The position numbers and the translations under genes are program-made. Source: a phage. Taken from it: a DNA stretch of 44,735 nt. This document shows, piece by piece, positions 1,361 through 44,520 of this stretch. The notes under the pieces were generated by a model. The model worked only from the letters and a program-made list of their open reading frames with translations, had not been told where the DNA came from and ran no database searches. The stretch is from the sequence record PZ166175.1. One strand, given 5' to 3'. Within the stretch, counting starts at the first letter, position 1. Each line of letters begins with the position of its first letter.

Positions 1361-1867
1361 TTATAGCTTACTAATTACGGACTCCAGCGCTTCCTTCATG
1401 CTATCAACGTCGTTAGCTGTGGAGTTATTGCTAATCTTAATCTCCTGCGGCTTATCAATCCCTAGCTCTTTACCAACAATCGTAGAGTTGATGATGCCTG
1501 CAACGCCAAGCTGGTATTTCTGCTCGTAGATTACGTTATCGATAAACTCCATCACGTCAGAGTATCCAGCCTCAGTACGCCAGCGAGCGAATCTATTTAT
1601 ATTAACTCCCATGAATAGCGCCAGGCCAGTTAAGGTGAACACTCGAGGCTTGTGCACTAAACTCTCGCTAACCACGCCCTGGAATGCCGCCGTCTCAATG
1701 GCTTTGATTGCCTCATTCTCAGCCCATGAAAAGTATCTCACTGCAAAGTCAAATACCTCCTCGGGAGTGTACTTGCGGTTGATTGCCACCATGGCAATAT
1801 CGCCATACTTCTTGTTGTATAGCGCCTTGAAATTTCCCTCACCCATCTTTAATGCTGCTTTGCTCAT
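1361..1867 (-). CDS. terminase small subunit (putative)
   Basis: 168-aa ORF immediately upstream of TerL on the same strand; RBS AAGGAGG before the ATG; assignment by position. Confidence 0.5.
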   Translation of the reverse strand: MSKAALKMGEGNFKALYNKKYGDIAMVAINRKYTPEEVFDFAVRYFSWAENEAIKAIETAAFQGVVSESLVHKPRVFTLTGLALFMGVNINRFARWRTEAGYSDVMEFIDNVIYEQKYQLGVAGIINSTIVGKELGIDKPQEIKISNNSTANDVDSMKEALESVISKL

Positions 1868-2495: not shown

Positions 2496-2544
2496 TACGA
2501 CCAATTTACAAGATGACATAAATGCCACCCATATAAATCCCGGT

Positions 2545-2578
2545 TACGGCTCCGGGGCTGCCTGATACAGCCGATTAA
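2545..2578. repeat. hairpin-containing direct repeat, copy 2
   Basis: AAATCCCGGTTACGGCTCCGGGGCTGCCT matches copy 1 at most positions. Confidence 0.4.
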
Positions 2579-2818
2579 TATGCCTATTTGCGCTAGGTCT
2601 TGCAAGTCCCATAAGGGGGTGAGGTTTACGCCTTATCCTCTTGGTCCAACATTTCATCCAGTTTTAGGTCGGAATCACCTGCCGCATACGCTACTTAATG
2701 AGCTACGGACTTTTATTCTGCGCTCCGTGCGCCGTTGTGGCTTAGCCACCTCGTTTGTGCATGGCTTTATAGTAGTTAATGCCGCTCAGTGATGCAAGCT
2801 CTTTTTAAACAATCCAAT

Positions 2819-3058
2819 CTATTCGTACAACGATTGACCATTCTCATCATGACCAACACGACCCTTAAGATAACCGCTAGTCCAAACAAATCTGTCCCGA
2901 CTAATGATTGTGAACACTGGCTTCCACATCTTAGAAATCAATGCCGCAACCTGCTTATCGTCCTTGCGCTGCCTTGTCGATAGCTTGCTATACTCCTCGT
3001 TTAACTTTGCCGCTTGGCGTTTAACTGCGTTAAAGTGCGCTTCTGATAATCCGAACAT
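2819..3058 (-). CDS. hypothetical protein (79 aa)
   Basis: ORF track; start overlaps the stop of the upstream small gene (TAATG). Confidence 0.45.
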   Translation of the reverse strand: MFGLSEAHFNAVKRQAAKLNEEYSKLSTRQRKDDKQVAALISKMWKPVFTIISRDRFVWTSGYLKGRVGHDENGQSLYE

Positions 3059-3198
3059 TAATTCAACCCCCTGTTAAAGCTTGCAGTCACTTCCATCATA
3101 TCCCCATCGCAAACGAACTCGTCGCCATATTTCTCATTGAAGTAAATTAAATCATCCACAAACTCTTCTTCATAATAAAATTTACATGTGTTCTTCAT
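3058..3198 (-). CDS. hypothetical small protein (46 aa, MKNTCKFYYEEEF...)
   Basis: hand translation; RBS GAGATTGAGAA before ATG; promoter cassette immediately upstream; below the ORF-track size cutoff. Confidence 0.4.
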   Translation of the reverse strand: MKNTCKFYYEEEFVDDLIYFNEKYGDEFVCDGDMMEVTASFNRGLN

Positions 3199-3214
3199 TT
3201 CTCAATCTCTCGTT

Positions 3215-3276
3215 TTGTTGGTAATGTCATTATATGCCATTCGTGTCAGATGCTTTTAGCTATTCGTGCTATTTTT
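3215..3276 (-). promoter_or_regulatory. early promoter cassette (palindrome + 22 bp + TATAAT)
   Basis: minus sense: AAATAGCACGAATAGCTAAA, 22-nt spacer, TATAAT. Confidence 0.5.
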
Positions 3277-3392
3277 ATCTTCTCTCTCCTTCCATAGATT
3301 CATCAGTTAAAAGTACTGCATAGCCTCTTAGCCAGTCTTAGCCTCATCCATTATTCTTTTAGCCCACTGGCTTGGTAATTCGTAGTTGTCCA

Positions 3393-3554
3393 TTAGTAAA
3401 TTATTACCTCGTCTTTTGAGAGGTAGATATCTTCGCCATTCTTGTTCTTTACGATGTAGCAACTACCATCATCACTCATCTCTGCGAAGAACACATCGCC
3501 GCGCTGAATTAGCGCCACATAATCACTCTCGCCAACATAAACAACCTTAATCAT
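3393..3554 (-). CDS. hypothetical small protein (53 aa)
   Basis: hand translation MIKVVYVGESDY...; RBS AAGGTG; stop overlaps next ATG. Confidence 0.35.
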   Translation of the reverse strand: MIKVVYVGESDYVALIQRGDVFFAEMSDDGSCYIVKNKNGEDIYLSKDEVIIY

Positions 3555-3572
3555 AGAATCACCTTACTTAAA

Positions 3573-3692
3573 TTATAGTTCGTTAGAATGCGTTTTAGCT
3601 TCATCTACTGATGCCGAAATTATGTAAATAATGGCGAAGCCTATAGACCAAAGTAACCACGGTAGAGCCTCAGCAAAAAGCTCGTCTATCAT
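3573..3692 (-). CDS. hypothetical small membrane peptide (39 aa)
   Basis: hand translation MIDELFAEALPWLLWSIGFAIIYIIS...; one hydrophobic helix; weak RBS. Confidence 0.3.
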   Translation of the reverse strand: MIDELFAEALPWLLWSIGFAIIYIISASVDEAKTHSNEL

Positions 3693-3717
3693 TAACCCTG
3701 TGTGCGTATCGCCACCC

Positions 3718-3915
3718 TCAGATTTTGTTAAGTTGCTCAAGAATTTCGTATGCTAGCTCTCGGGCCTGCTCTTCGGTTAAGTGAATGGTGTGAACCTGAG
3801 GTTCATCTCTCATCCCACACGCCTGGGCAATAATGAATGTTGCGTAGCCATCGAAGTGGTTGGCCTGGAGCTTTGGTTCTGATTGTTGAAATCTCATTTC
3901 TTCTTCCTCGTTCAT
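3718..3915 (-). CDS. hypothetical protein (65 aa)
   Basis: ORF track; promoter cassette directly upstream. Confidence 0.5.
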   Translation of the reverse strand: MNEEEEMRFQQSEPKLQANHFDGYATFIIAQACGMRDEPQVHTIHLTEEQARELAYEILEQLNKI

Positions 3916-3980
3916 TTCGATGGGGTAACTATAGCAAGTTACCCCAATACTGTTTTAGCAATTAGTGCTATTTAGCATTC
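3905..3980 (-). promoter_or_regulatory. early promoter cassette
   Basis: minus sense: AAATAGCACTAATTGCTAAA, 22 nt, TATAGT, TACCCCATCGAAATG; box lies in a GGGGTAACT/AGTTACCCC inverted repeat. Confidence 0.5.
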
Positions 3981-4111
3981 TTTGACAACTTCACACCACT
4001 TAATAGTTCCCCCAAGAACCCTCTGCTGATCAAATGCTTCTTTAAAATCCTCATAAACCCGAACATGCTTCACGCTGTTAAATTTACCAGTGTTGTACGT
4101 ATGGATGTAAA

Positions 4112-4336
4112 TCATTTCTTTGTCACCTCATCCCAGTTAGTCAGGTATGCCGCATTAACGCTAAGCGCCTCGTATTTGCGTGATGACTCGAAGTCACTGA
4201 CGTCGAACTGCTGATTGTTGATCTGCTTAACTACCTCTTTTGCAACCGCGATATGCTCTGATGGCGTATGGTAGCTGAATTGAACAAAGCTCTTCAGGAT
4301 TACTGCGTCTTTCTCTGACAGGTTAATTGTAATCAT
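4112..4336 (-). CDS. hypothetical protein
   Basis: ORF track 4112..4375; start moved to the ATG with AAGGAAAA RBS (MITINLSEK...). Confidence 0.45.
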   Translation of the reverse strand: MITINLSEKDAVILKSFVQFSYHTPSEHIAVAKEVVKQINNQQFDVSDFESSRKYEALSVNAAYLTNWDEVTKK

Positions 4337-4346
4337 ATTGTTTTCC

Positions 4347-4451
4347 TTAGTTGTTGAAATACGCGTAAAACTCAAAATAACTCATGTATGATAAGAATCC
4401 AAAAATCAAAATAACCGTCAATACAACTAAAGCTTCAAATGACTTTGGCAT
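4347..4451 (-). CDS. hypothetical small membrane peptide (34 aa)
   Basis: hand translation MPKSFEALVVLTVILIFGFLSYMSYFEFYAYFNN; RBS GAGAGGAAG; cassette upstream. Confidence 0.4.
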   Translation of the reverse strand: MPKSFEALVVLTVILIFGFLSYMSYFEFYAYFNN

Positions 4452-4454
4452 TTT

Positions 4455-4528
4455 TTCTTCCTCTCGCTTGGTGTGGGCTAACTATAACAAAACCCGCCGG
4501 ACCGGGTTTAGCAATTCGCGCTATTACC
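4455..4528 (-). promoter_or_regulatory. early promoter cassette with terminator-like hairpin in the spacer
   Basis: minus sense: AATAGCGCGAATTGCTAAA, 22 nt containing a CCCGG..CCGGG hairpin, TATAGT. Confidence 0.45.
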
Positions 4529-4780
4529 ACCACTAATTGATTTAGACGATTCATGAATCATCTTCTGCCCGTAAAGCTCCTTAGATTTCTGTAATGAATC
4601 AATCGAGTCATTGAGGTCGGTAAGGTAACCCTTATGGCCTCGTAGCCCAAGGCACAATAGCTTCTTGATTGCGTGCTGAGTTGCCGGGTCTGCCACGTGG
4701 AATGCATCTAGAACGCGATATACATCCACCGTAGTTACTGTTCCATCCAGGCTAATAATTTTACGTTCGTACTTGCTCAT
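4508..4780 (-). CDS. hypothetical protein (90 aa)
   Basis: ORF track; ATGA start/stop overlap with the upstream small gene. Confidence 0.5.
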   Translation of the reverse strand: MSKYERKIISLDGTVTTVDVYRVLDAFHVADPATQHAIKKLLCLGLRGHKGYLTDLNDSIDSLQKSKELYGQKMIHESSKSISGGNSANC

Positions 4781-4860
4781 ATCTCAATCCTCGTTATTGT
4801 GCCGCCATGCGTATTAAGCATGAGTTTTGCGTATTTTTCGTCTACATAGTGCAGGAGCAT
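4777..4860 (-). CDS. hypothetical small protein (27 aa)
   Basis: hand translation MLLHYVDEKYAKLMLNTHGGTITRIEI; RBS AGGGGTG; ATGA overlap with downstream gene. Confidence 0.3.
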   Translation of the reverse strand: MLLHYVDEKYAKLMLNTHGGTITRIEI

Positions 4861-4972
4861 ATCAGCACCCCTGATGCTGAACTTATGTTCGTATATGGTC
4901 AATAAAATTCCTTTCGTGTGGTTGATATGGGGATTATACCAGTCAGGATGAATCCCCTTTTAACGAAAGGTT

Positions 4973-5077
4973 CTATTTGATAAACACCAGAAAAATAATC
5001 ACCAGGAGCAGGGTCGCCAATGATAATCCAAGCATCAACAGTTGCATCAACAGTTGCATCACATCAGATGACTTCAT
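4973..5077 (-). CDS. hypothetical small membrane peptide (34 aa)
   Basis: hand translation MKSSDVMQLLMQLLMLGLSLATLLLVIIFLVFIK; ATGA overlap with upstream gene; contains a 12-bp tandem duplication. Confidence 0.35.
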   Translation of the reverse strand: MKSSDVMQLLMQLLMLGLSLATLLLVIIFLVFIK

Positions 5078-5283
5078 ATCGCCTCCGCCTCGTACGCCGC
5101 CAGGATTAATGCCGCCGCCAGTTTGCGGGCTTGATCAGGGCTGTATCGCATAACCGTCTGGCCGTCTCCATTGTCGTAAGGATCGAAATCCAGATACACA
5201 ACCGCTCCTTGATCGGCGCTACCTATACTTACCTCAGCCCGATCAAAGCACTGATCTTCTACTAGAACAGCTTCCATAATCAT
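5074..5283 (-). CDS. hypothetical protein
   Basis: ORF track 5074..5331; start moved to MIMEAV... after RBS AAAGAGGAAA because the cassette box lies inside the longer ORF. Confidence 0.45.
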   Translation of the reverse strand: MIMEAVLVEDQCFDRAEVSIGSADQGAVVYLDFDPYDNGDGQTVMRYSPDQARKLAAALILAAYEAEAI

Positions 5284-5284
5284 T

Positions 5285-5356
5285 TCCTCTTTGTTTTCGA
5301 TGGGGTAATCATAGCTGACTACCCGATCCATTGTTTAGCAATTCGTGCTATTTACC
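5285..5356 (-). promoter_or_regulatory. early promoter cassette
   Basis: minus sense: AAATAGCACGAATTGCTAAA, 22 nt, TATGAT, TACCCCATCGAAAAC. Confidence 0.5.
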
Positions 5357-5441
5357 ACTCAGGAGTGATTTAGCTTTCCGGTAGAACTCAATGGCCGCTT
5401 CCACCTCTTCCTCGCTGTACCGCAAGTGGTATGGTAGTCTA

Positions 5442-5990
5442 CTACTTTGTTTTCTTAATCATTTCCTGATAAGCGTTAATCATTGTAACGGCGCCCTTAA
5501 GCTCTTCACCTTCCAAGCCCGCAACGCTTGGTGACAGCTTGAGTAGTCTAGACTTAAACTTTTCAATGATGGCCGCCTCTTTCTCTGCTTCCTGCTTCTT
5601 CTTCTCACGATTGCCGGTCCAGTGAGCGCCGTCCTCAATATAGATTACCAGGTATTTATCAGCACCATCGCCATCGAAATTACCCGGCCTGGTTTGCTCG
5701 CCTTCATCGTCAATCCAGATGAACTTGTAGCGCGCTCGCTTGTCGGCGTCTCGTAGTTCATTCATTCGCGACACGGTATTGTAGATGTACGAGTTCTTTA
5801 GTTCAGGCATCGCCCTGTCTGCCAGGTTTAGTATCTCGTCAGTCTCTTCGTCATACTCCATTTCGGGATATGGCTTGCCGCGAACAAGTTTGAATATCTG
5901 GCTTACCGGAACTTTGAACTCGCCGTTCTCAGACGCCATTGCGTTACGCACCATCTCACGGATAACTTCGCCAAGTGTTACTTTCTGCAT
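5442..5990 (-). CDS. hypothetical protein (182 aa), first gene of the leftward early operon
   Basis: ORF track; RBS GAAACGAGG. Confidence 0.55.
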   Translation of the reverse strand: MQKVTLGEVIREMVRNAMASENGEFKVPVSQIFKLVRGKPYPEMEYDEETDEILNLADRAMPELKNSYIYNTVSRMNELRDADKRARYKFIWIDDEGEQTRPGNFDGDGADKYLVIYIEDGAHWTGNREKKKQEAEKEAAIIEKFKSRLLKLSPSVAGLEGEELKGAVTMINAYQEMIKKTK

Positions 5991-6287
5991 GTTGATACCT
6001 CGTTTCGTTTACTTCGTTTCAGTGATTGCCATCTTGCCACTTGTTTACGTGTCGGTCAACGTATTTTTATGTCTATTCCATCGCGTATACGTTTTTTCGG
6101 CCTTCAAGGTAGCGTCAGCACTGGTTGTAAACGCGCCGTATCCCCTGTATACCGTTTTTGAGGGTACTTTCCTATATATGTGCCTTTTTATTCCTACAAT
6201 GTCATCCCTTTCCTACAAGTGTCAGAATATCTGCGCGGAACATATCAATTATCTCACCAATGATCGGTATACACAGTATACATATAT

Positions 6288-6308
6288 ATAATAATAATAA
6301 TAATAATA
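6288..6308. repeat. (ATA)7 microsatellite inside a block shared with 24125..24187
   Basis: ataataataataataataata read directly; paralogous block has (ATA)5. Confidence 0.8.
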
Positions 6309-6519
6309 AAGTAAAATGTTGATATATATAGATATTATATTGTATATCGTGTGTATATCTCGCGTAAAAACGTAGGTTAGTGTTCGCTAACTTTTGTGAC
6401 GACACTGAGTATACATGGGTTACGCGTATGCGAAAAATGGCCCGGCAAGAATAAAAATCAACTTGTATGGTAGTCCTTCAATCCTTCATTCACTCACCCA
6501 CCACTTCATTTCACTTTTC

Positions 6520-6616: not shown

Positions 6617-6691
6617 CGAATAGCACTTTTTGCTAAAGACATTAGGGTCTGGTGGGGCTATAGTTAACTCACCAACAGCGAGGGTGTAGAT
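6617..6691 (+). promoter_or_regulatory. early promoter cassette (plus orientation)
   Basis: AATAGCACTTTTTGCTAAAG, 23 nt, TATAGT, then RBS and ATG at 6692. Confidence 0.5.
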
Positions 6692-7305: not shown

Positions 7306-7466
7306 TGCTATTACCATCTGAGATAAATTATTTCGATCTTGAGGTTATAAGCGCCTATAGCGGAAAGGGCTGGCCTTGCGGAGACTGGTTCCGCGAAGAC
7401 CTGCTTGAGAGCCATGAAATTATGATCAAGGCGATAGAGAAGGCACGAAATAGCACTAATTGCTAA
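7302..7466 (+). CDS. hypothetical small protein (54 aa)
   Basis: hand translation MMLLPSEINYFDLEV...; ATGA overlap with upstream gene; 3' end runs into the next cassette palindrome. Confidence 0.35.
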   Translation: MMLLPSEINYFDLEVISAYSGKGWPCGDWFREDLLESHEIMIKAIEKARNSTNC

Positions 7467-7519
7467 AGCCCTTCGGGGATTTTCCTGTATATTCATCTCA
7501 TCGAAACGGAGGATTTGAA
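7445..7519 (+). promoter_or_regulatory. early promoter cassette
   Basis: AAATAGCACTAATTGCTAAAG, 22 nt, TATATT, CATCTCATCGAAAC, GGAGG, ATG. Confidence 0.5.
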
Positions 7520-7858: not shown

Positions 7859-8278
7859 ATGACCATTAATTACTGCAAGATAACTGCCGGATGGAACAAA
7901 ACCACAAATAACTGGGTTAGCAACGAAAACGTACTCTACAAAGCTCGCGTTAAAAAGGTTCACCAATGGGTTGATGGTGTAGTTAAGGAGGTGGAATTTA
8001 AGCAAATCAAGAAAGATGGAAAATGGATTAACCTTGAAGAGCGCGGAAGATACATTAAGACTAAAACTCTTTACGTTACCCGAGTTAACCATAACTCGTC
8101 AGTTAAGAAGTCATTTAAGCTCGGAAAGAGATACCAGGTATCTATGCATGCTGGGATTGGACAAAATGCTGGGTATATTTATGACGAAGATGGTAATGCC
8201 TGGCAGCTTTACCGAAGTGAGGATGTTGGGTTCTTTACTCTCTGTGGCACGTACTATTTTGAGGCTCAATATCTGTAA
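7859..8278 (+). CDS. hypothetical protein
   Basis: ORF track 7835..8278; start moved to the ATG after GAGAGTAAAAAA. Confidence 0.5.
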   Translation: MTINYCKITAGWNKTTNNWVSNENVLYKARVKKVHQWVDGVVKEVEFKQIKKDGKWINLEERGRYIKTKTLYVTRVNHNSSVKKSFKLGKRYQVSMHAGIGQNAGYIYDEDGNAWQLYRSEDVGFFTLCGTYYFEAQYL

Positions 8279-8352
8279 ATAGCACAAATTGTTAATGAAT
8301 TATAAGCGGTCGTTGTTATAATGGCCGCTCAGAAACAACACGGAGAGAAGTA
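8277..8352 (+). promoter_or_regulatory. early promoter cassette with consensus TATAAT
   Basis: AAATAGCACAAATTGTTAA, 22 nt, TGTTATAAT (extended -10), then RBS GGAGAG and ATG at 8353. Confidence 0.5.
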
Positions 8353-12884: not shown

Positions 12885-12967
12885 TATATAAGTTCCTTAA
12901 TTCATTACGATAAAGTATAAGATAGTAAAGCTAAACAGTGGGGCTAATGCCACTAGTATTAGGCTTT

Positions 12968-13219
12968 TCATTCAACTTCTTTTAACCAGTAGTCGATAAC
13001 TTCCGCACTAATTGATAATTTTTCATCAAGGTCAGTCATGCACAGATTTCCGCATGCTGGAGAGTAGTAAATCTGTACCCACTTTCCTTCTTTAGTTTTT
13101 GCGTTCACATCCACATAGTCAGGAGGGAACCAGTCAGCAATAGGTATCGCCCTAAACTTAGCTCCACTTTGACCATATACTAAATCGTAATGCTCTGGCT
13201 GAAAATCTAAACCCAACAT
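12968..13219 (-). CDS. hypothetical protein
   Basis: ORF track 12968..13225 (TTG); start moved to ATG after RBS AAGGATTGAG. Confidence 0.45.
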   Translation of the reverse strand: MLGLDFQPEHYDLVYGQSGAKFRAIPIADWFPPDYVDVNAKTKEGKWVQIYYSPACGNLCMTDLDEKLSISAEVIDYWLKEVE

Positions 13220-14689: not shown

Positions 14690-14757
14690 TGTTTCGTTTC
14701 GATGGAGTAACTATATCGCATCCATGCGAAATCCCTTTAGCAATTCGTGCTATTTTG
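14690..14757 (-). promoter_or_regulatory. early promoter cassette
   Basis: minus sense: AAATAGCACGAATTGCTAAAG, 22 nt, TATAGT, TACTCCATCGAAAC. Confidence 0.5.
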
Positions 14758-17266: not shown

Positions 17267-17749
17267 ATGAATGCAGTAGACAAGCGAACCATTAACGGCA
17301 ATAACGGAACCATCCGCACCGAAGACAAAAAGAAACGTAAACGACCTTCAGGCTACTACGTTTTAAAAGATGAAGTAAGGGCCGGGCTACGCGCGCGGCT
17401 AGAGATTGTTCTTGATTTCTTCGGCACAAAGGCGAATATCGCAAAGCAGTTAAAGGTAACACCACAGGCCGTAGAAGAATGGTTTAAGCGCGGCATGATT
17501 TCTGCGCGTGGCGCCCAGCTATCGCACAACTACTATAAGCGAAATGGAGAAGGCTTTCGCGCTACATTCTGCCGCCCAGACCTGCAATTCGACGGTAACG
17601 GCAAGCCGCTAACCCTGCGGTGCAAAAAACGTCATATGCTGCGTGTTGTTACTGAGGCCGAATTAGCCACCAAGCCAGAGTGTCGATCATGGCGCAAGAT
17701 TAAGGCCGCTAACGAGGCAGCACGAAAAGCTAAAGAGCAAGGGAAATAG
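17267..17749 (+). CDS. putative DNA-binding protein (HTH)
   Basis: ORF track; segment TKANIAKQLKVTPQAVEEWFKRG resembles an HTH; basic N-terminus. Confidence 0.45.
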   Translation: MNAVDKRTINGNNGTIRTEDKKKRKRPSGYYVLKDEVRAGLRARLEIVLDFFGTKANIAKQLKVTPQAVEEWFKRGMISARGAQLSHNYYKRNGEGFRATFCRPDLQFDGNGKPLTLRCKKRHMLRVVTEAELATKPECRSWRKIKAANEAARKAKEQGK

Positions 17750-17802
17750 CACGAATTGATAAACAGTGGCGCTATACATTGTGTATAGTGCCTTTATTGT
17801 TT
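17745..17802 (+). promoter_or_regulatory. early promoter cassette
   Basis: AAATAGCACGAATTGATAAAC, 22 nt, TATAGT, then RBS GGGGGTAA and ATG at 17803. Confidence 0.5.
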
Positions 17803-18759: not shown

Positions 18760-18825
18760 ATGCCTGAAAGATGATACAATCCAATTTAGCAATTCTTGCT
18801 GTTTTACAAATGGAGACTTTACACA
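18760..18825 (+). promoter_or_regulatory. tail fiber promoter candidate (TGATACAAT) with palindrome TTTAGCAATTCTTGCTGTTTT downstream of the -10
   Basis: extended -10-like TGATACAAT then the cassette-type palindrome between -10 and start codon. Confidence 0.4.
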
Positions 18826-22584: not shown

Positions 22585-22665
22585 TGCTAACCTCGCTCGT
22601 TGTTGATTGGGTAATCATACCACAACTTTTAATTTCGTCTTTAGCAATTCGTGCTATTTATATTT
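22585..22665 (-). promoter_or_regulatory. early promoter cassette
   Basis: minus sense: AAATAGCACGAATTGCTAAAG, 22 nt, TATGAT, TACCCAATC. Confidence 0.5.
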
Positions 22666-24158: not shown

Positions 24159-24283
24159 AGAGTAAAAGGTTGATATATATAGATATTTTAATGTAACCAA
24201 TGCGTAACTAGGCGTAACAGGGCGTATATCATTTTTCGCGGATTAGATTGCATACATCGAGTTACATCGGTTACGTGTATGCA

Positions 24284-24367
24284 ATAGCACGAATAGCTAA
24301 AGACATTCCGCAGAGACAGCTGTATTATTACCACGTCGAAACTAAGCAACTTAACAAGGAATGCAAG
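24284..24367 (+). promoter_or_regulatory. early promoter cassette
   Basis: AATAGCACGAATAGCTAAAG, 23 nt, TATTAT, TACCACGTCGAAAC, AAGGAA, ATG. Confidence 0.45.
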
Positions 24368-30744: not shown

Positions 30745-30815
30745 TCCTCTTGTTTCGATATGGTAACTATAACCCATCTTTCAAAATCGCCTTTAGCAAT
30801 TTGTGCTATTTAGCT
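30745..30815 (-). promoter_or_regulatory. early promoter cassette inside the late tail operon
   Basis: minus sense: AAATAGCACAAATTGCTAAAG, 22 nt, TATAGT, TACCATATCGAAAC, AGAGGAG, ATG. Confidence 0.5.
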
Positions 30816-44444: not shown

Positions 44445-44520
44445 TTTTTTCTCCTCTCGTTTGTGTAAGTTAACTATAAGCCATCCGTGTCTTTGGTGTT
44501 TAGCAATTCGTGCTATTTAA
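44445..44520 (-). promoter_or_regulatory. early promoter cassette overlapping the TerL stop codon
   Basis: minus sense: AAATAGCACGAATTGCTAAAC, 22 nt, TATAGT, TAACTTACACAAACGAGAGGAG, ATG. Confidence 0.5.

Follow-up and report, generated by a model that had tools for sequence, protein, structure and literature searches.

Three small open reading frames for predicted single-helix peptides in the variable small-gene block of a T1-like coliphage

The DNA analysed here, a stretch of 44,735 nt from record PZ166175.1 (hereafter the window), was compared with public genomes over the region 3000–6000 and over a 24-kb stretch, and its closest match proved to be a T1-like coliphage of the family Drexlerviridae, subfamily Braunvirinae. 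The nearest genomes are those of the vB_EcoS-12210I group (Veterinaerplatzvirus), with ~87–90% identity at a coverage of 58–82%, the 24-kb stretch showing 87% identity over 82% with its closest relatives. The minus strand holds all genes from position ~6000 down to 1, in the order DUF7174 gene, a string of tiny genes and the gene for the small terminase subunit, a layout that is also seen in relatives. Three open reading frames (ORFs) in this string, here termed p1, p2 and p3, had been singled out by a first-pass annotation, made from the letters alone, as small hydrophobic peptides. Their coordinates were confirmed, all on the minus strand, and each was found to be dominated by one hydrophobic stretch (Table 1). 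It is likely, on the evidence given below, that each of the three ORFs is an accessory gene encoding a single-pass (bitopic) micro-protein of the inner membrane. Two of them, p1 and p3, join as new members small Drexlerviridae families that are annotated but uncharacterised, and p2 is a probable ORFan gene.

Table 1. Peptide ORFs, promoter cassettes and neighbouring genes of the window (coordinates in the window; sequences where given)
Feature	Position	Strand	Length	Sequence or motif	Remarks
p1	3573..3692	-	39 aa	MIDELFAEALPWLLWSIGFAIIYIISASVDEAKTHSNEL	single-helix peptide, conserved-family member
p2	4347..4451	-	34 aa	MPKSFEALVVLTVILIFGFLSYMSYFEFYAYFNN	single-helix peptide, probable ORFan; first ORF after cassette promoter
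p3	4973..5077	-	34 aa	MKSSDVMQLLMQLLMLGLSLATLLLVIIFLVFIK	very hydrophobic, Leu-rich peptide
Ancestral p1 start codon	3705..3707	-		GGTGGCGATACGCACACAGGGTTAATG	ACG in the window, ATG in relatives (metagenome contig L010: GGTGGCGATATGCACACAGGGTTAATG)
Tandem duplication in p3	5036..5059	-	12-nt unit	ATGCAACTGTTG x2	encodes MQLLMQLL
Cassette driving p2	4481..4525	-		AATAGCGCGAATTGCTAAA (4507-4525)	20-nt GC stem-loop spacer; -10 TATAGT (4481-4486)
Cassette motif	5334..5352	-		AATAGCACGAATTGCTAAA	heads the unit of the 69-aa gene and p3
Cassette motif	3954..3972	-			heads the unit of the 59-aa gene, p1 and the 53-aa gene
Degenerate cassette directly after p3	4933..4978	-		AAATAGaacctttcgTTAAAA, 19 nt, extended -10 (TGgTATAAT)	heads the unit of the 41-aa and 90-aa genes
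Cassette repeat, minus-strand sites	3255-3273, 3954-3972, 4507-4525, 5334-5352, 14736-14754, 18785-18803, 22640-22658, 30792-30810, 44499-44517	-			
Cassette repeat, plus-strand sites	6619-6637, 7449-7467, 8278-8296, 17745-17763, 24283-24301	+			
DUF7174 gene	5442..5990	-			
69-aa gene, upstream of p3	5074..5283	-	69 or 67 aa		phrog_13316; true start 5283 or 5277
74-aa DUF7180 gene, downstream of p2	4112..4336	-	74 aa		phrog_16063 (E 1e-37); PF23805 (E 1e-20)
59-aa gene, upstream of p1	3718..3897	-	59 aa		phrog_7411; residues 1-59 match positions 2-61 of the 61-position profile
53-aa gene, downstream of p1	3393..3554	-	53 aa		phrog_38524; exact sequence on 22 public contigs
Small terminase subunit gene	1361..1867	-			phrog_606

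The best 17-residue Kyte-Doolittle mean (KD17) was 2.10 for p1, 2.52 for p2 and 2.95 for p3. Values of 2.4 or more were reached by four of the 170 ATG-initiated ORFs of 25–60 aa in the six frames, namely p2, p3 and two others lying antisense inside genes. AlphaFold2 modelled p1 as one helix (residues 2–38) with a predicted local distance difference test score (pLDDT) of 88, using an alignment of 15 sequences (p1 and 14 homologs), and p2, from its single sequence, as one helix spanning residues 2–33 (pLDDT 96). Hydrophobicity alone is no evidence for a gene, since the gaps left by long genes (17% of the window) hold 4 of the 24 hydrophobic small ORFs and are thus not enriched in them, the other 20 lying out of frame inside genes. 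The case for genes rests instead on strand, signals, gap-filling and conservation. When codon usage was expressed as a log-likelihood ratio (LLR) and compared with 197 out-of-frame control ORFs, p1 scored 0.27 bits per codon (0.5% of the control ORFs being higher), p2 0.22 (1% higher), which is within the range of real-gene fragments, and p3 −0.22.

The best documented of the three is p1. Homologs were found by tblastn in 17 phage records (37–85% identity, E 4e-15 to 8e-4), and a phmmer/protein search of 5.8 billion proteins returned 14 metagenome clusters, all of 42–44 aa, with E values of 1e-13 to 1e-18 and on phage-sized contigs of up to ~48 kb. Over the full length, p1 shares 37–92% identity with members of its family, the nearest copy (92%) being at 3863–3979 of the metagenome contig L010, where it had been skipped by the gene caller. 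In several phages of the subfamilies Braunvirinae and Rogunavirinae the homologs are annotated as hypothetical proteins of 39–44 aa (Rao1 gp05, ACG-M12_0004, MM01_00004, IME542 and Phagiculus), a family for which neither Pfam nor PHROG holds a model. With the ACG-M12_0004/Rao1 gp05/MM01_00004 proteins p1 has in common the single helix, the place among small genes upstream of the terminase and the motif PWLxWSLGF...Y.I.A..DD.K, the family core P-W-L-L-W-S-x-G...Y-I-I-S-A being nearly invariant and followed by an acidic C-tail (DDAK). Pairwise ratios of nonsynonymous to synonymous substitution rates (dN/dS) within the family are 0.06–0.3, with synonymous sites near saturation, showing that purifying selection acts on p1. 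Relatives without p1 retain its last 26 nt as intergenic DNA before the 53-aa gene, which identifies p1 as a separate module of ~110 nt that is gained or lost as a unit. On these grounds we regard p1 as a genuine gene with high confidence.

The window copy differs from the family at its start. Homologs in relatives begin MHTGLMIDE, and the start expected of a family member is an ATG at this MHT position behind a Shine-Dalgarno (SD) sequence; the window has ACG for this ATG, so that translation of p1 must begin at an internal ATG (3692), five codons downstream of the ancestral start position. The SD of this internal ATG is weak (AGGG, three bases from the ATG, −3.2 kcal/mol) and p1 does not overlap the upstream gene. 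The start of p1 is thus variant or impaired, its homology being unaffected, and the Phagiculus homolog begins naturally near the same internal ATG. A TTG at 3740, which would give a p1 of 55 aa, was rejected as a start, having no SD, lying inside the upstream gene and not corresponding to the MHT start of relatives.

The family of p3 was recovered from DNA. A blastn search with p3 retrieved five relatives with 72–92% identity, namely A110b, P818, XT34, GaoY1-9D and PH1062. The first, a Braunvirinae record labelled as a Campylobacter phage, matches at 88% over the whole p3 ORF, which is unannotated there; in the other four, all Nouzillyvirus phages, the homologs are annotated coding sequences (CDSs) for a “hypothetical protein” of 32–38 aa (P818 UOX38513, XT34 WPK42172, GaoY1-9D XCO12170 and PH1062 WKV16885). 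The SD of p3 is GGAGG (−9.5 kcal/mol) and its start overlaps the upstream gene as ATGA, an overlap present in all six copies, even with a different upstream gene in each of the two Drexlerviridae lineages. All six copies also end V/I-K-TAG, the TAG lying inside the AAATAG of the following promoter cassette. Indels among the copies are in-frame only and mostly concern the copy number of a 12-nt unit encoding LLMx, which is tandemly duplicated in the window and in XT34 (MPLLMPLL) and single in P818, the frame being always kept, and all substitutions leave the helix hydrophobic. In summary, p3 shares with UOX38513-like proteins of Nouzillyvirus the pattern MK..DV..LLM.LL.LGLSLATLFLVIIFLVF[VI]K, the ATGA overlap and a stop codon that falls within the following cassette's AAATAG. 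It differs from them in that the window and A110b belong to Braunvirinae and have phrog_13316, not a 72-aa gene, upstream, in how often the LLMx unit is repeated and in the cassette that follows, which is degenerate in the window and canonical (AAATAGCACGAATTGCTAAA) in the Nouzillyvirus relatives. We consider it probable, with a little less assurance than for p1, that p3 is a real gene.

Protein-level searches had been blind to this family. The tblastn search of p3 against 50,697 phages gave no match, a false negative due to the low-complexity filter, and the same filtering may also explain why a word-indexed protein search missed the family: a concatenated p2 and p3 query against the 5.8 billion proteins returned nothing, the p3 homologs of GenBank included, and is hence a weak negative. 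As tblastn missed the p3 family and blastn found it, a negative protein search cannot be relied on where micro-ORFs are very hydrophobic. A degenerate, back-translated p3 DNA pattern had no match in IMG/VR, and a locus search with the gene upstream of p3 retrieved a 12210I-type contig only.

The evidence for p2 is of a different kind. In EC3a, 12210I and JeanPiccard the SD-ATG of the promoter cassette opens the DUF7180 gene directly (ATG|ATTACAATTAACCTG), and alignment of these phages with the window (ATG|ATTACAATT versus ATG[105 nt]ATTACAATT) places an exact insertion of 105 nt, that is 35 codons, at the ATG. The old SD-ATG of the cassette thus opens p2 in the window, and the insert ends TAA-GGAAAACAAT-ATG, restarting the DUF7180 gene. 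The SD of p2 (GAGAGGAAG, −6.0 kcal/mol) lies ~30 nt downstream of the cassette promoter, and the TAA that ends p2 forms part of the following gene's SD (TAAGGAAAACAATATG). In SU57 a different gene, of 61 aa, occupies the same insertion point. No homolog of p2 was found by tblastn in the 50,697 phages or, locally, in 16 related loci, by phmmer against 1.84 billion representatives (0 matches), or with degenerate DNA patterns in IMG/VR, in JGI metagenome contigs (two patterns) and in GTDB genomes; blastn of the p2 DNA gave short chance matches only in phages and none in E. coli genomes. The gene-module structure of the insertion leads us to lean towards p2 being a real gene, an ORFan.

These results bear on several claims of the first-pass annotation. 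Ribosome-binding sites, translational coupling or an own cassette promoter, claimed for the peptides together, were found for p3 (GGAGG, ATGA) and p2 (SD, cassette promoter), p1 having only a weak SD and no overlap. The description of the ORFs as unannotated holds with respect to the 60-aa cut-off of the ORF track and, for p1, to the contig L010, and it does not hold in general, the homologs of p1 and p3 being CDSs in GenBank. Conservation of the reading frames among relatives, set out beforehand as a test, is evident for p1 and less so for p3 (dN/dS ~0.5, in-frame indels, start and stop kept), p2 having no relative in the collections searched. Other small ORFs of the cluster had likewise been taken as unannotated; on the contrary, strong matches to existing PHROG families were obtained for the 53-aa (phrog_38524), 47-aa (phrog_3955) and 41-aa (phrog_12148) ORFs, the 46-aa ORF having a marginal match only (phrog_29823, E 0.026).

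The cassette promoter that had been noted is present; its repeat, aaATAGCACnnnTTGnTAAAA, has been reported before in TLS, T1 and Rtp. This 21-nt repeat is also known from Rogue1, and whether it acts as stoperator, enhancer site or UP element is undecided (PMC11447400). The window holds 14 copies versus 0.01 expected, all oriented with local transcription and some lying upstream of structural genes. The repeat contains the palindrome TAGCA-N5-TGCTA and is often followed by TACCCCATCGAAA. Its TTGCTA lies 20–22 nt from a TATAGT-like −10 element, which is not canonical −35 spacing, with the palindrome centre near −42, a geometry that would fit a dimeric factor at a class-II-like position. Stems adjoin or surround the −10, e.g., GGGGTAAC..GTTACCCC and CCCGG..CGGG, and the stem-loop of the p2 cassette was also flagged as terminator-like. 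Window positions 3904–3972 share 81% identity over 69 nt, including GGGGTA..TATAGTTACCCCATCGAAA, with phT4A (KX130727, 4817–4885), where the element is intergenic between two small hypothetical genes; it belongs to T4-like Slopekvirus myoviruses of Klebsiella and E. coli. The same regulatory cassette is therefore common to unrelated phage families, in the manner of the PeSL, the mobile regulatory cassettes of T4-type phages that shuffle ORFans and whose motifs recombine to give excised mini-circles (Arbiol et al. 2010, PMC2839356; Comeau et al. 2014, PMC4122927). As in PeSL, a promoter and a stem-loop are repeated and oriented with transcription, and they may likewise flank small ORFans gained, lost or exchanged among close relatives. 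Unlike PeSL, the window repeat occurs genome-wide, also before structural genes and not only in hyperplastic regions, and the p1 and p2 junctions lie at an SD-ATG or at gene ends rather than in the repeat, which only p3 abuts.

Against relatives, blastn homology breaks off and resumes exactly at the borders of each peptide gene, and the slots of the variable block are mosaic among relatives. The relatives' block holds further small transmembrane (TM) proteins or lipoproteins (ACG-M12_0003, EC3a gp14, SU57_0006/bas02_0065 and a 59-aa two-TM protein of P818), and such a block of tiny accessory genes, some of them membrane-bound, is the norm in T1-like and other virulent phages. SU57_0006 (3080–3343 of its record) and bas02_0065 of JeanPiccard (3256–3519), both of 87 aa, carry a lipoprotein signal (…LTGC) in the same variable block and are absent from the window; they are possibly Cor/Llp-like exclusion lipoproteins.

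From these data the following scheme can be proposed. The three genes would belong to a hyper-variable block of small genes, stretching between the divergent control region at ~6000 and the terminase genes and divided into short transcription units, each headed by the aaATAGCACnnnTTGnTAAAA repeat and then a −10 element. Their transcription by the host RNA polymerase is presumed because T1-like phages encode no RNA polymerase of their own (PMC11447400). The small genes, tightly packed or overlapping, would be translated by coupling, and each peptide gene forms a module of 105–120 nt, which close relatives may possess, lack or have exchanged for an unrelated gene at that slot; such genes would hence be dispensable, horizontally shuffled and “moron-like” rather than core. 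The peptides would insert in the host inner membrane early in infection and bind or perturb a host membrane protein, the likeliest roles being superinfection exclusion, through blocked DNA entry, or the modulation of a transporter, a protease or a membrane-bound defence. This functional part, drawn by analogy, is put forward tentatively and as rather doubtful. Some characterised small phage membrane peptides do block superinfection or retune host membrane machines, and bacteria possess regulatory membrane micro-proteins such as CydH/YnhF, MgtS, AcrZ and CydX. With these and with phage superinfection-exclusion membrane proteins (T4 Imm, HK97 gp15) p1–p3 share the size class and the single TM and, as regards the phage examples, the accessory status, and they have no sequence relationship with any of them. 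None of the three peptides scored above any cut-off in curated small-protein, toxin and holin families (Pfam, PHROGs, NCBIfam), the best matches below the cut-offs being, for p2, CydH and MgtS at 13 bits (NCBIfam cut-offs 30 and 35) and phrog_38303 (E 0.018) and, for p3, PF15339 at 11.7 bits (cut-off 27). A PDB search with p1 and an Rfam scan of 2500–6500 gave no match, and the literature on Drexlerviridae early membrane proteins and small phage TM proteins yielded no study of p1, p2 or p3.

Several points weigh against accessory membrane micro-protein genes. The genes are predicted here from sequence; the early timing is assumed from the sigma-70-like cassettes of a phage family devoid of its own polymerase; and the function is only inferred, no match in Pfam, PHROG, NCBIfam, PDB or Rfam and no relevant paper giving it a footing. 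With its ancestral ATG lost and a poor SD, p1 may be weakly expressed or decaying, and its topology is not predictable from the positive-inside rule because both tails are acidic. No homolog of p2 on which selection might be gauged was found in any collection searched, and we estimate roughly at 10% the chance of an open 34-codon frame in T-rich DNA. The constraint on p3 is modest, with dN/dS of 0.4–0.55 in diverged pairs (~0.5 overall) and ~1 in the closest pairs; its codon usage is non-coding-like, being indistinguishable from that of out-of-frame ORFs; and its 3' half is nearly identical in DNA across lineages, a similarity for which cassette-linked DNA exchange, and not selection on the peptide, could be responsible. 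Much of this would be expected if p2, and possibly p3, were incidental, non-functional open frames in spacer or cassette-flanking DNA, the conservation of p3 deriving from recombination-prone DNA by the promoter repeat, inside which its stop lies, and p2 from foreign DNA that happens to be open. That protein, DNA and pattern searches all failed to turn up a homolog of p2 and that hydrophobic small ORFs are not enriched in gaps would agree with such an origin. It hardly accounts, however, for an insert of exactly 35 codons bounded by an existing strong SD-ATG and by a stop with a new SD-ATG, nor for a codon LLR of p2 in the top 1% of control ORFs. As for p3, the ATGA start is kept behind two unrelated upstream genes, indels are in-frame only, the hydrophobic helix is kept and four independent annotations call it a CDS. 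We consequently hold incidental frames to be rather unlikely.

The first-pass annotation had likened such peptides to host-takeover or toxic effectors, and they could be imagined as membrane-damaging, that is depolarising or permeabilising, agents of host shut-off, like type I toxins or holins. Their size of 34–39 aa and the extreme hydrophobicity of p3 resemble small pore-forming or depolarising peptides such as the TisB, Hok and Ldr-type toxins, and they are dispensable and sporadic, like morons. Early depolarisation would nevertheless harm a phage that depends on host energy, the lysis genes lie elsewhere, with a signal-arrest-release (SAR) endolysin annotated in the structural/late half of relatives, searches of Pfam, PHROGs and NCBIfam revealed no resemblance to a toxin or holin family, and no antisense regulator or dual-start motif is evident, making a toxic role improbable. 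A role of p1 as a spanin, acting in outer-membrane disruption at lysis, is suggested by GenBank itself, where its homolog WNO47648.1 in Escherichia phage ES is annotated as “u-spanin”. The T1-type u-spanin has an N-terminal lipobox with Cys, a beta-rich periplasmic domain of ~100 aa and a C-terminal TM (~101–123), its gene following that of the SAR endolysin within the lysis cluster (PMC11447400). The p1 family consists instead of proteins of 39–44 aa with one helix, encoded upstream of the terminase and lacking a lipobox, as no member contains a cysteine; p1 fails every defining feature of a u-spanin, and this assignment can be set aside with near certainty. The record of phage ES (OR466728) also labels neighbouring proteins of 53 aa and of 61–79 aa as “endolysin”, “capsid maturation protease” and “head morphogenesis protein”, a “phosphoesterase” completing the labels given to its 44–79 aa small-block proteins; these are likely automated mis-annotations, being implausible for such sizes and positions.

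Genes for accessory single-pass micro-proteins thus remain the reading that we prefer for p1, p2 and p3. A bolder extension of it, which we consider quite unlikely, would take p2 as a newly arisen or unsampled ORFan micro-protein, a 105-nt module captured behind a strong phage promoter, and would see in p1, p2, p3 and a further ORF at 12897..12971 a rapidly exchanged single-helix repertoire, each peptide binding a specific host inner-membrane complex. Were it true, Drexlerviridae would carry a shuffled “toolbox” of micro-protein inhibitors, largely missed by annotation and family databases and directed to targets such as a defence system anchored in the membrane or the route by which rival phages bring in their DNA.

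Little work has been devoted to the small membrane peptides of phages, and the present analysis pins two conserved uncharacterised families and one ORFan to exact coordinates with their translation signals, offering three cheap experimental targets, of 34–39 codons, in an easily handled coliphage family. It also carries a practical warning, as filters hid the p3 family, a gene caller skipped p1 and a pipeline gave a p1 homolog a false “u-spanin” label. Otherwise, what is described here is ordinary, being the usual content of the variable small-gene block in T1-like phages.

The further ORF just mentioned (12897–12971, minus strand) is a fourth candidate micro-peptide of 24 aa (MKSLILVALAPLFSFTILYFIVMN, KD17 2.38) in a gene-free gap; it overlaps the upstream phrog_4596 gene as ATGA, and the SD of the downstream exonuclease gene (TAAGGAAC) contains its TAA. 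Close to p1, a 21-aa ORF (3328–3393, minus strand; MDNYELPSQWAKRIMDEAKTG) overlaps the stop of the 53-aa gene as TAATG. It begins much like the product of a 52-aa gene of Rao1 (gp06; MDNYEKP, read from the DNA after the stop of the p1 homolog), and it is probably a truncated copy.

The starts of two neighbouring genes had to be revised. The start listed for an 85-aa ORF upstream of p3 is an ATG inside the cassette promoter (5284–5331 region), and it was discarded in favour of the start of the 69-aa gene (or of its 67-aa form), the PHROG alignment beginning at residue 19 and the SD pointing to 5283 or 5277. Likewise, the start listed for a 65-aa ORF upstream of p1 is an ATG in the promoter (3898–3915), the PHROG alignment and the SD placing the start at 3897 (59 aa).

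Between the DUF7174 gene and the next cassette, 100 nt (5345–5444, minus strand) are 93% identical to the 3' end of SU57_0002 (4181–4280 of the SU57 record); this stretch has the look of what a deletion has left of a gene of ~175 aa, of which a 25-aa TTG ORF (5348..5425) is the sole leftover. Finally, the 90-aa protein encoded at 4508–4780 (minus strand) resembles ATPase/P-loop NTPase PHROGs over their C-terminal third only (phrog_2452, positions 151–228 of 235, and phrog_17613). JeanPiccard has a 205-aa P-loop NTPase in the slot of this gene, and the 86-aa homolog in EC3a is labelled “terminase large subunit”, evidently wrongly.

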